This document shows, piece by piece, positions 58,590-63,058 of a stretch of 64,000 nucleotides of DNA. Numbering within the stretch: the first letter of the stretch is position 1; each line of letters opens with the position of its first letter. Both the position numbers and the translations under genes were made by a program. A model generated the notes under the pieces. It searched no databases. It worked only from the letters and a program-made list of their open reading frames with translations, and had not been told where the DNA came from. The stretch comes from Octopus vulgaris. Its lineage: Eukaryota. The stretch spans positions 44,764,001-44,828,000 of the forward strand of contig OX597827.1 of the NCBI GenBank assembly GCA_951406725.2. The letters are read 5' to 3'.

Positions 58590-58738
58590 AGTCAAGACAG
58601 AGCGCGATTCGATTGTAATAGATATATTATTGGTTGAACGATATTTCGACAGTAAGTCTGTCTTTGTCGAGTTACTGTCAAAATATCATTCAACCAATAA
58701 AATATCTATTACAATCGAATCACACTATACGTCTTGAC

Positions 58739-61108: not shown

Positions 61109-61294
61109 TCACACACACATGCACAAACAAATATCATAATCATCATCATTTAATTTCCGCTTTCCATGCTAGCATGGGTTGGACGGTTTGACTGGAGCTG
61201 GCAAAACCAGAATCCACACTAGGTTTCATTGCCTGTTTTGGTTTCTACAGCTGGATGCCCTTCCTAATGACGACTACTTCATTGAGTGTGTGTG

Positions 61295-61337
<43 letters not shown>

Positions 61338-61454
61338 ATATTTCGGAATGGTCATATTGCCAGTTTAGCCAATAAAAACATACGCACTATATATTTGGTG
61401 TTATTTTGCTTCAGTGATATTTATTTTTTACATTAATCTTAATCTTATTTCGGC

Positions 61455-62189
61455 ATGCAGTTCTCAGGTTACAGCCATAAAGAAAGGATCAGAGTATACA
61501 AAGGAGCCATGAAGAAATTTGATAATATATTATGTAATGATAGGAATGGGATTTGCCCACTCTATAGGAACAAGTCATGGAACACTATAGAAAGGACAAA
61601 AAAGAAAATAGGGAAGGCCAACTCTTGGTATGATAGCCATAAATACCAGAGTGTCATGTTCGTTGACACCACCCCTGGAGGTGAACTAGCGTACCGCTTT
61701 AGAAGGACCCTAGATAAACTTAAACTAAGAATTAAGGTTGTTGAAAAGCCAGGCAACCCTATCAGATCTATAATTGGTAGAAGCTATCCTTTTAGTAGAA
61801 CTCTCTGTATGGATAACTATTGCACTGTATGTAGATTTAGCCCACAAACGAACTGTAAAGCCAGAAATGTGGTCTATAGTATAAGATGTATAGAGGGACG
61901 ATGCAGTAACAAGACAGTAACATACGTAGGGGAAACTGCAAGAAGCATTGGTGAGCGGGTGAATGAACATTGGAGACAACTCAAGGAAGGTAAAAGCTCA
62001 TCGATTCTGTACCAACACGCCGAACAAGAACACGGGGGATCAATCAATAACATAGAGATTAAGATATTGTCCACACATAGAACAGATGCAACAATTAGAC
62101 AAATTACAGAAGCTACACATATAATAGAAAATAAACCTAGCCTGAATAGAAAACTAGAATGGAGCAATAGCGCACACCACAACATATGA
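61455..62189 (+). CDS. Penelope-like element ORF C-terminus: RT thumb/linker, Cys-rich motif and GIY-YIG endonuclease (5'-truncated, RT core missing)
   Basis: 244 aa, uninterrupted: LCMDNYCTVC...CKARNVVYSIRC...C...YVGETARSIGERVNEH...LYQHAEQEH...RQITEA..I...PSLNRKLEW fits the PLE GIY-YIG (VVY...YVGET, R..EH, E, LN). SGY...PLYR...FV..TPG..L...IKVVE.PG and LN.K.EW resemble Naiad-type PLEs. Confidence 0.9.
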   Translation: MQFSGYSHKERIRVYKGAMKKFDNILCNDRNGICPLYRNKSWNTIERTKKKIGKANSWYDSHKYQSVMFVDTTPGGELAYRFRRTLDKLKLRIKVVEKPGNPIRSIIGRSYPFSRTLCMDNYCTVCRFSPQTNCKARNVVYSIRCIEGRCSNKTVTYVGETARSIGERVNEHWRQLKEGKSSSILYQHAEQEHGGSINNIEIKILSTHRTDATIRQITEATHIIENKPSLNRKLEWSNSAHHNI

Positions 62190-62658
62190 CAATAGTGGAT
62201 CCTGCAAACACAATAAATACACAGGTAATTAAAGAAATAGAAATGAATATCTATATGTGTATATATGTGTGTATATATGTATATATATGTATATGTATAT
62301 GTATGTATATATATATATGTATATGTATATTCTTTTTTTTTTTTTTTCGGTTAGATTTATTATTATTATTACTAATATTGTTGTTATACATACATACAAG
62401 CATATGTAATGATAATAATGGGTGGATGTAAACACATGAACAAAATTAGAACAAAAGCAACAACAACAAAAACAAAATACAAATTACAAGAATGTATATA
62501 ACCAGAAGATACAAATATTACAGGCATCCCCCCACACACACTAAATAAACATAGACGCACATAGAGATATAAGCATGCGCAAATGAAGACATACAATAGA
62601 AATACAAAATGGCTGACGGTTAGTAAGGAGAGACACAAGTAAGTGAGAAGAAAACAAA

Positions 62659-62703
62659 GGACCACTGATGCGGTCACAGGAGTGTGACGAAAGAACTTTG
62701 GCC
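62659..62703 (+). ncRNA. Candidate minimal type I hammerhead ribozyme of the PLE pLTR (non-canonical at position 9)
   Basis: GGACCA-CTGATGCG-GTCACA-ggag-TGTGAC-GAAAG-aa-CTT-TGGCC: stem I CCA/TGG, 6-bp stem II, intact GAAA, 2-bp stem III, predicted cleavage after CUU at 62698. Confidence 0.6.
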
Positions 62704-62879
62704 GAAATAAGATTAAGATTAATGTAAAAAATAAATATCACTGAAGCAAAATAACACCAAATATATAGTGCGTATGTTTTTATTGGCTAAACTGGCAATA
62801 TGACCATTCCGAAATATAACAATATCTGTTTCAACACACGACTTCACATAAAAAATCTTGCACAACAAATATTTAAACG

Positions 62880-62924
<45 letters not shown>

Positions 62925-63058
62925 CCAGCTGTAGAAATCATGCAAAGCAGACAATGAAACCTAGTGCAGCTCCCAGGCTTGCCCTCTCCATGTCAAATTA
63001 TCCAACACATATCAGCATGGGAAAACAGAAGTTAAATGATAATGATTATCATATATAT

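Follow-up and report, generated by a model that had tools for sequence, protein, structure and literature searches.

The window, a stretch of 64,000 nt of Octopus vulgaris DNA, harbours between positions 61,295 and 62,924 an insertion that is flanked by (TA)n on either side (61299-61333 on the left, 62880-62922 on the right), as a reading of the sequence alone had already reported. The final 4 nt of the left target tract are ambiguous with the end of the adjoining arm, and ends of the family abut (TA)n. The insertion opens on the reverse strand with an inverted, 5'-truncated arm lacking the tail (61330-61454), a copy of positions +3 to +127 of the pLTR on a scale in which +1 is 62699, counted from the predicted hammerhead cut (after 62698). 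Together with 62701-62825 this arm forms an inverted repeat of 125 nt with 100% complementarity, which bears out the mismatch-free repeat of the sequence-only reading. The two arms meet at the inversion junction 61453-61454, a 2-nt microhomology (GC) common to both; since these bases also belong to the ORF arm, the start of the inverted arm is uncertain within +3 to +5.

The forward strand then carries the last 244 codons and the stop of a 1,308-aa RT-EN ORF (61455-62189), covering the end of the thumb, the linker and the GIY-YIG domain. The open frame itself spans 248 codons (61443-62189), the first four of which derive from the inverted arm rather than from the ORF; it is uninterrupted, as claimed before, and matches Pfam GIY-YIG weakly (E 5e-4, 20.7 bits, sub-threshold at a cut-off of 22.6). 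Within it lie, also on the forward strand, a Zn-finger-like linker of the form C-x4-C-x2-C-x7-C (61806-61856), which has the short Nematis-type spacing given in the text of Fig. S2 of PMC8557442, and the GIY-YIG endonuclease (61869-62147) with two Cys and two His (CCHH) as well as the R, H, E and N residues. A TA/TG microsatellite and a T-run inside the 3' UTR (62245-62347, forward strand) belong to the element. They are followed on the same strand by a type I hammerhead motif with an A9C core and U17 (62659-62703), by the start of the next unit's ORF (62800-62880; ATG at 62800, 27 codons) and by a tail of 55 nt (62826-62880) bounded by the fixed ends 62825 and 62880. As the family ORF begins at the ATG equal to 62800, the right end of the window copy is the start of the next unit. 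The insertion sits between two oppositely oriented copies of another common repeat, which are 76% identical (61131-61254, forward; 62925-63054, reverse). Farther upstream in the window, a hairpin with 58-nt arms, 90% complementarity and a 10-nt loop occupies 58601-58726.

A search of the octopus genome itself yielded 2,085 candidates, 40 of which were scored; the best of these had 99-100% identity across the ORF portion. There are exactly 2,372 occurrences of the tail-less end followed by TA, and a 20-mer of the pLTR is present in 4,984 copies. Only 66 candidates extend to the 5' region, and among 20 regions fetched from these, eight contain an intact ORF of 1,307-1,309 codons, from which the window copy differs at 4-6 of 776 sites. 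The unit of 4.59 kb is arranged in tandem, with three pLTRs spaced by 4,589 and 4,587 nt at locus L101. With a single ORF for a telomerase-like RT and a GIY-YIG endonuclease (EN), a tandem pLTR containing a hammerhead, an inverted 5' copy and a one-sided tail, the family has the features of EN+ Penelope-like elements (PLEs), and its copy number is high, and both the earlier assignment to this group and the earlier notion of a young family stand. The locus is thus a real, young and ordinary-looking PLE insertion. Among named proteins, the nearest is 99% identical and carries the label Octopus vulgaris; 31 active Penelope-like families have already been counted in this species, without clade names (PMC13282606). 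A search of viral_contigs found no relative. Locus L241, considered as a duplicate of the window copy, turned out to be an independent insertion. Other retroelement-like ORFs lie beside family copies at L064, L066, L076 and L077, those at L076 and L077 apparently representing a second PLE family, and a predicted host protein (‘dynein regulatory complex subunit 6-like’) holds a 98% identical piece of the ORF, either by exonisation or through a gene-model error.

In the intact copies (1,307-1,309 aa), the RT lies upstream and the EN terminates the ORF. Pfam found nothing in the whole ORF and only RVT_1 and GIY-YIG, both sub-threshold, in its C-terminal part; a PDB sequence search with the single protein gave no match and a PDB profile search gave bacterial RTs only. 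A structural model of the RT-EN part (pLDDT 93) has its best fold matches among TERTs (Z 11.2, rmsd 3.6, 339 aligned), and its residues 666-765 match I-TevI (Z 9.8, rmsd 2.2, 90 aligned). C675, H718 and H723 of the EN are invariant in 107 sequences, C648, C653 and C656 of the linker are invariant too, the distance from CxxC to the next Cys is 5-12 aa in 94 proteins, and DKSG occurs in 91 of 108. The distance between RT3 and RT4 is 124-136 aa in 108 of 122 proteins (the remaining 14 did not match the motif used), about twice the span of the canonical rows in Fig. S1 of PMC8557442. The RT lineage carries an insertion of ~65 aa at the position of the telomerase IFD, a feature that canonical PLEs lack (PMC8557442); among the matches listed by a literature search for IFDs in PLEs, this paper is the only one that concerns PLEs, and five motifs of the octopus RT were not found in its supplement.

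The earlier label ‘Naiad-like’ has to be given up: Naiad is defined by an EN N-terminal to the RT (PMC8557442), whereas that of the octopus family lies C-terminal to it. Naiad resembles the family in several respects: it targets (TA)n, has inverted 5' copies and a tail, possesses a similar EN with both Zn-finger motifs and carries an insertion at the IFD position. It differs in the EN preceding the RT, the CxC and DKA motifs, its long linker and the lack of a canonical hammerhead; neither its EN order nor DKA nor the missing canonical hammerhead applies to the octopus family. Cephalopod Naiads are described as long inactive (PMC8557442). The Hydra clade, including Hydra-1_Obim, shares the C-terminal EN, the (TA)n targets and a hammerhead in which position 9 is followed by an extra base and which often has U17. 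It is defined by loss of CCHH (PMC8557442) and further differs by a CxCX5C linker, DKT, the absence of an IFD and a length of <3 kb, while in the octopus family the CCHH residues are invariant and the unit measures 4.59 kb. Neptune is marked by a long spacer, with ~25 aa separating CxxC from the next Cys, which is not seen in the octopus family. The invariant linker cysteines of the family set it apart from Penelope/Poseidon, which have no linker Zn finger. With Nematis (Nematis_C4, _Pp and _Cr; Fig. S2 of PMC8557442) the octopus family has in common, as compared by eye, the C-terminal GIY-YIG, CCHH, a pLTR hammerhead and a short CX2-5CxxC linker with about 7 residues to the next Cys. It differs from Nematis by DKSG instead of DKG, by an Asn-rich N-terminal insert and by the RT3-RT4 insertion, the nematode distance being about 60 aa by eye in two rows of Fig. 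S1 whose clade was read from the row names. We therefore suggest the description ‘Nematis-type’, not Nematis, a putative placement by motifs compared by eye rather than by a reference tree. At L105:3018-6944, the N-terminal third of the ORF contains a long in-frame Asn/Ser-rich low-complexity insert ahead of the RT. An in-frame Asn-rich insert has been described in Penelope families of the rotifer Adineta vaga (PMC3846280), which also share the inverted pLTR, the optional tail, first codons within the pLTR and microhomology junctions, but have low copy numbers and their insert elsewhere in the ORF.

Among 201 copy ends at loci not chosen for TA, 82 lie at +127 (62825) and 82 at +182 (62880), the others being mostly indel shifts or within a few bases of these fixed ends. 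Both fall inside the ORF start of the next unit. Five TA units directly follow 155 of 197 terminal ends, and the rest run mostly into AT-rich DNA, so the proposed preference for (TA)n is supported across the family. TA is present on both sides of 75 loci; of 20 loci where it is not, four have called target duplications of 14-16 bp. A hairpin around +127 folds no better than shuffled sequences (z +0.95). In the anole element Poseidon_Ac (PAc), the tail is delimited by two internal start sites of reverse transcription, and mutation of the hammerhead leaves insertion unchanged (PMC11167929). The octopus ends follow the pattern of internal initiation of reverse transcription described there, and by this analogy 62825 and 62880 would therefore be mechanistic ends and 62701 the place where one cDNA stopped. 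PAc further shares the tandem unit, an ORF start near the hammerhead, AT-rich targets and the position of the two ends in the ORF start. It differs in a tail of 30-40 nt instead of 55 nt and an ATG 26 nt upstream of the cut instead of 102 nt downstream, while the linker Zn finger and the strong (TA)n bias distinguish the octopus family.

Of 85 junctions that lack inserted bases, 63 show the two arms overlapping by ≥2 nt (chance 22%); in 37 of 122, inserted bases take the place of an overlap. A set of 49 junctions with a 10-nt overlap was dropped because a stricter filter for support eliminated it. The first base of an arm is T only slightly more often (44 of 170) than the composition of the element predicts (22% T), hence microhomology at T-runs is not a general rule. 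Ten of the 122 junctions are symmetric fold-backs, six of them at -82 to -101 (L040, L059, L128, L146, L176 and L201), a cluster that is possibly a palindrome-driven hot spot. When 73 head-to-head arm pairs were compared, the partners had 99 minority variants in common against 23 in shuffled pairs and differed at 137 sites against 323. The window arms likewise share an A at +76 (62774), a variant seen in one of 188 young arms. Both arms of one insertion thus come from one donor, either as one RNA copied twice or as two RNAs of the same donor.

In our view, the window most probably holds a 5'-truncated insertion of a young PLE with C-terminal EN. An uncut tandem transcript was likely the template for its two head-to-head arms, and these likely became joined through microhomology, not at a ribozyme cut. 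On the model of the anole element studied in vitro, the RT-EN protein would nick the two strands of a (TA)n tract at sites separated by 12-16 bp, and RNA from one donor would be primed at +127 by one strand and at +182 by the other. Each cDNA would end prematurely, and pairing of a few bases would link their 3' ends; at the window insertion, the arms would have reached lengths of about 125 nt and about 1,430 nt. The hammerhead descends from a canonical one and, with A9C and C17U, is probably weak and not required for insertion.

The motif consists of stem I (62659-62664/62699-62703), the core CUGAUGC (62665-62671), an extra G, a 6-bp stem II and GAAA (62689-62692), and minimum free energy folds contain stems I and II (z -1.5 and -1.2). 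None of 34 Rfam matches at E≤10 is a hammerhead. The complete CUGANGA/GAAA/UH core of active hammerheads is absent from the window, where position 9 is C instead of the canonical A, a substitution that the sequence-only reading had missed and that recurs in 171 of the 178 motifs first sampled. The hammerhead-like motif recognised in that reading is nevertheless real and of true hammerhead origin, as 316 exact motif copies in the genome have a purine at this position and thus the canonical core (A in 98 among 100 listed), next to 3,324 copies with C9 and 1,483 with U17. PLE ribozymes normally possess an extra base after position 9, a G10.1-C11.1 pair and a weak helix III (PMC4209133); U17 is common in Hydra motifs, and tabulated motifs keep A9 (PMC8557442). 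About six of 100 listed rows have lost helix III and the cut site through a recurrent deletion of 15 nt that lies between two GAAA words.

Over a segment of 277 nt, divergence from the own group is 3.5% for A9/C17 (n=11), 2.1% for C9/C17 (n=58) and 0.3% for C9/U17 (n=188), in a sample that is biased towards young copies and in which paired arms are not independent. The core subfamilies carry nested linked variants. At 0.0036 substitutions per site per million years, their ages are roughly 10, 6 and 1 million years. Canonical cores lie behind the ORF in two of eight related metagenome loci scanned, so that A9 is ancestral. The core changed stepwise, from canonical (oldest) through A9C to C17U (youngest), while the family kept expanding; the rising copy number after the core change may be the chance of one master lineage. 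In hammerheads, A9 pairs with G12. Core changes usually lower activity sharply, although some natural variants work (PMC3088659, PMC9901934), so that the A9C/C17U hammerhead is likely weakened. The passages of these two papers report no A9C activity, and none was found by a literature search on A9 substitutions.

One alternative, proposed for PLEs in PMC4209133, is that the hammerhead cuts the transcript despite A9C, the ends religate and a circular RNA serves as the template, on which copying passes freely over the cut and yields tandems. Tandem arrays such as L101 exist, natural core variants can retain activity (PMC3088659), and the anole ribozyme is protein-assisted (PMC11167929). The stems and all other core bases are fixed in the young subfamily as well; fixation within a group diverged by 0.3%, however, shows no selection. 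Given that the core left its ancestral state twice as copy number rose and that insertion in vitro does not require cleavage (PMC11167929), we regard this course of events as unlikely.

Still less probable is the model of the sequence-only reading, in which the RT ran off the 5' end of ribozyme-cut RNA and the inverted arm begins at the cut. We tabulated inversion breakpoints across other copies, using 92 of the first 100 listed copies on one contig (C1; 30 loci returned and 62 fetched), one of which ran off its locus. Of the remaining 91 arms (median length 224 nt), only one starts at +1 to +5, five at -8 to +6 and 14 at +72 to +87, while 53 continue beyond -8. Genome-wide, junction-type matches, in which a 20-nt anchor is kept and the consensus is lost 14-15 nt upstream, number 288 of 4,984 in the interval at the cut (-8 to +6), 457 of 3,338 at +72 to +87, at a T-run 80 nt away, and 107 of about 3,300 in an upstream control (-43 to -29) whose denominator comes from an anchor overlapping with its own. 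Inspection by eye classes 26, about 17 and about 15 of 100 listed rows, respectively, as indels, which leaves corrected junction rates of roughly 4%, 11% and 3%.

The interval at the cut is thus about 1.6 times richer in junctions than the control, so the motif region is not neutral; this excess over one upstream control is real and modest, and stalling at the motif stems or at a short T-run could explain it. The interval at +72 to +87, in turn, is about 2.5 times stronger than that at the cut. Judged by eye, 74 near-cut junctions among 100 listed rows fall at -7 (2), -6 (7), -3 (6), -2 (6), -1 (18), 0 (5), +1 (5), +2 (1), +3 (5), +4 (3), +5 (8) and +6 (8), with the mode at -1 and no peak at +1, where run-off would place them. 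Eight of the 18 junctions at -1 have the C of the older subfamily at position 0 (binomial p 0.10 versus chance), which fits copying across the scissile bond, weakly if taken alone. Locus L002 had seemed to share the +3 breakpoint owing to a query-edge effect; its actual junction is at -6.

The breakpoints consequently speak against ribozyme cleavage defining the end of the copied segment and leave a modest excess near the motif. The window arm does begin close to the predicted cut, at +3 to +5, as had been pointed out, but it lacks +1 and +2, and the supposed offset of 3 nt follows no rule: 62701 is a variable junction with a 2-nt microhomology, and its vicinity to the cut is most likely a coincidence. 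An assembly or gene-conversion artefact is hardly credible as the source of the perfect repeat, for although both arms carry the 62774 variant that by another count 186 of 188 young arms lack, and no contig listed from four public runs bridges the junction (which proves nothing), 73 arm pairs show this layout with differing junctions and, in many cases, shared rare variants, and the tail is present on one arm and absent from the other, as elsewhere in the family.

Under the internally initiated, microhomology-joined insertion that we prefer, the model of two start sites, known from one lizard element, applies to a distant clade as well. The RT, for its part, indicates a PLE lineage whose large insertion occupies the place of the telomerase IFD. 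The octopus family bears on the role of the hammerhead in Penelope elements: as it offers three natural ribozyme versions in known order and thousands of junctions, this role becomes directly testable, and the genomic side of that test already speaks against cleavage-defined ends. With this series of cores and junctions, the value of the family exceeds that of the single locus. Tentatively, the data may be read jointly as a widespread, unnamed PLE lineage with C-terminal EN and an IFD-sized insertion in the RT fingers, in which the octopus family documents how its catalytic hammerhead core was lost stepwise (A9/C17 to C9/C17 to C9/U17) during its largest expansion. If so, the series would be a natural experiment in which the ribozyme is dispensable for, or even a brake on, PLE spread in vivo.

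The family is also present at ≥90% in three runs labelled as other organisms (X16, X17 and X18; organisms B, C and D), and C is dominant at 62698 in X16 and X18.
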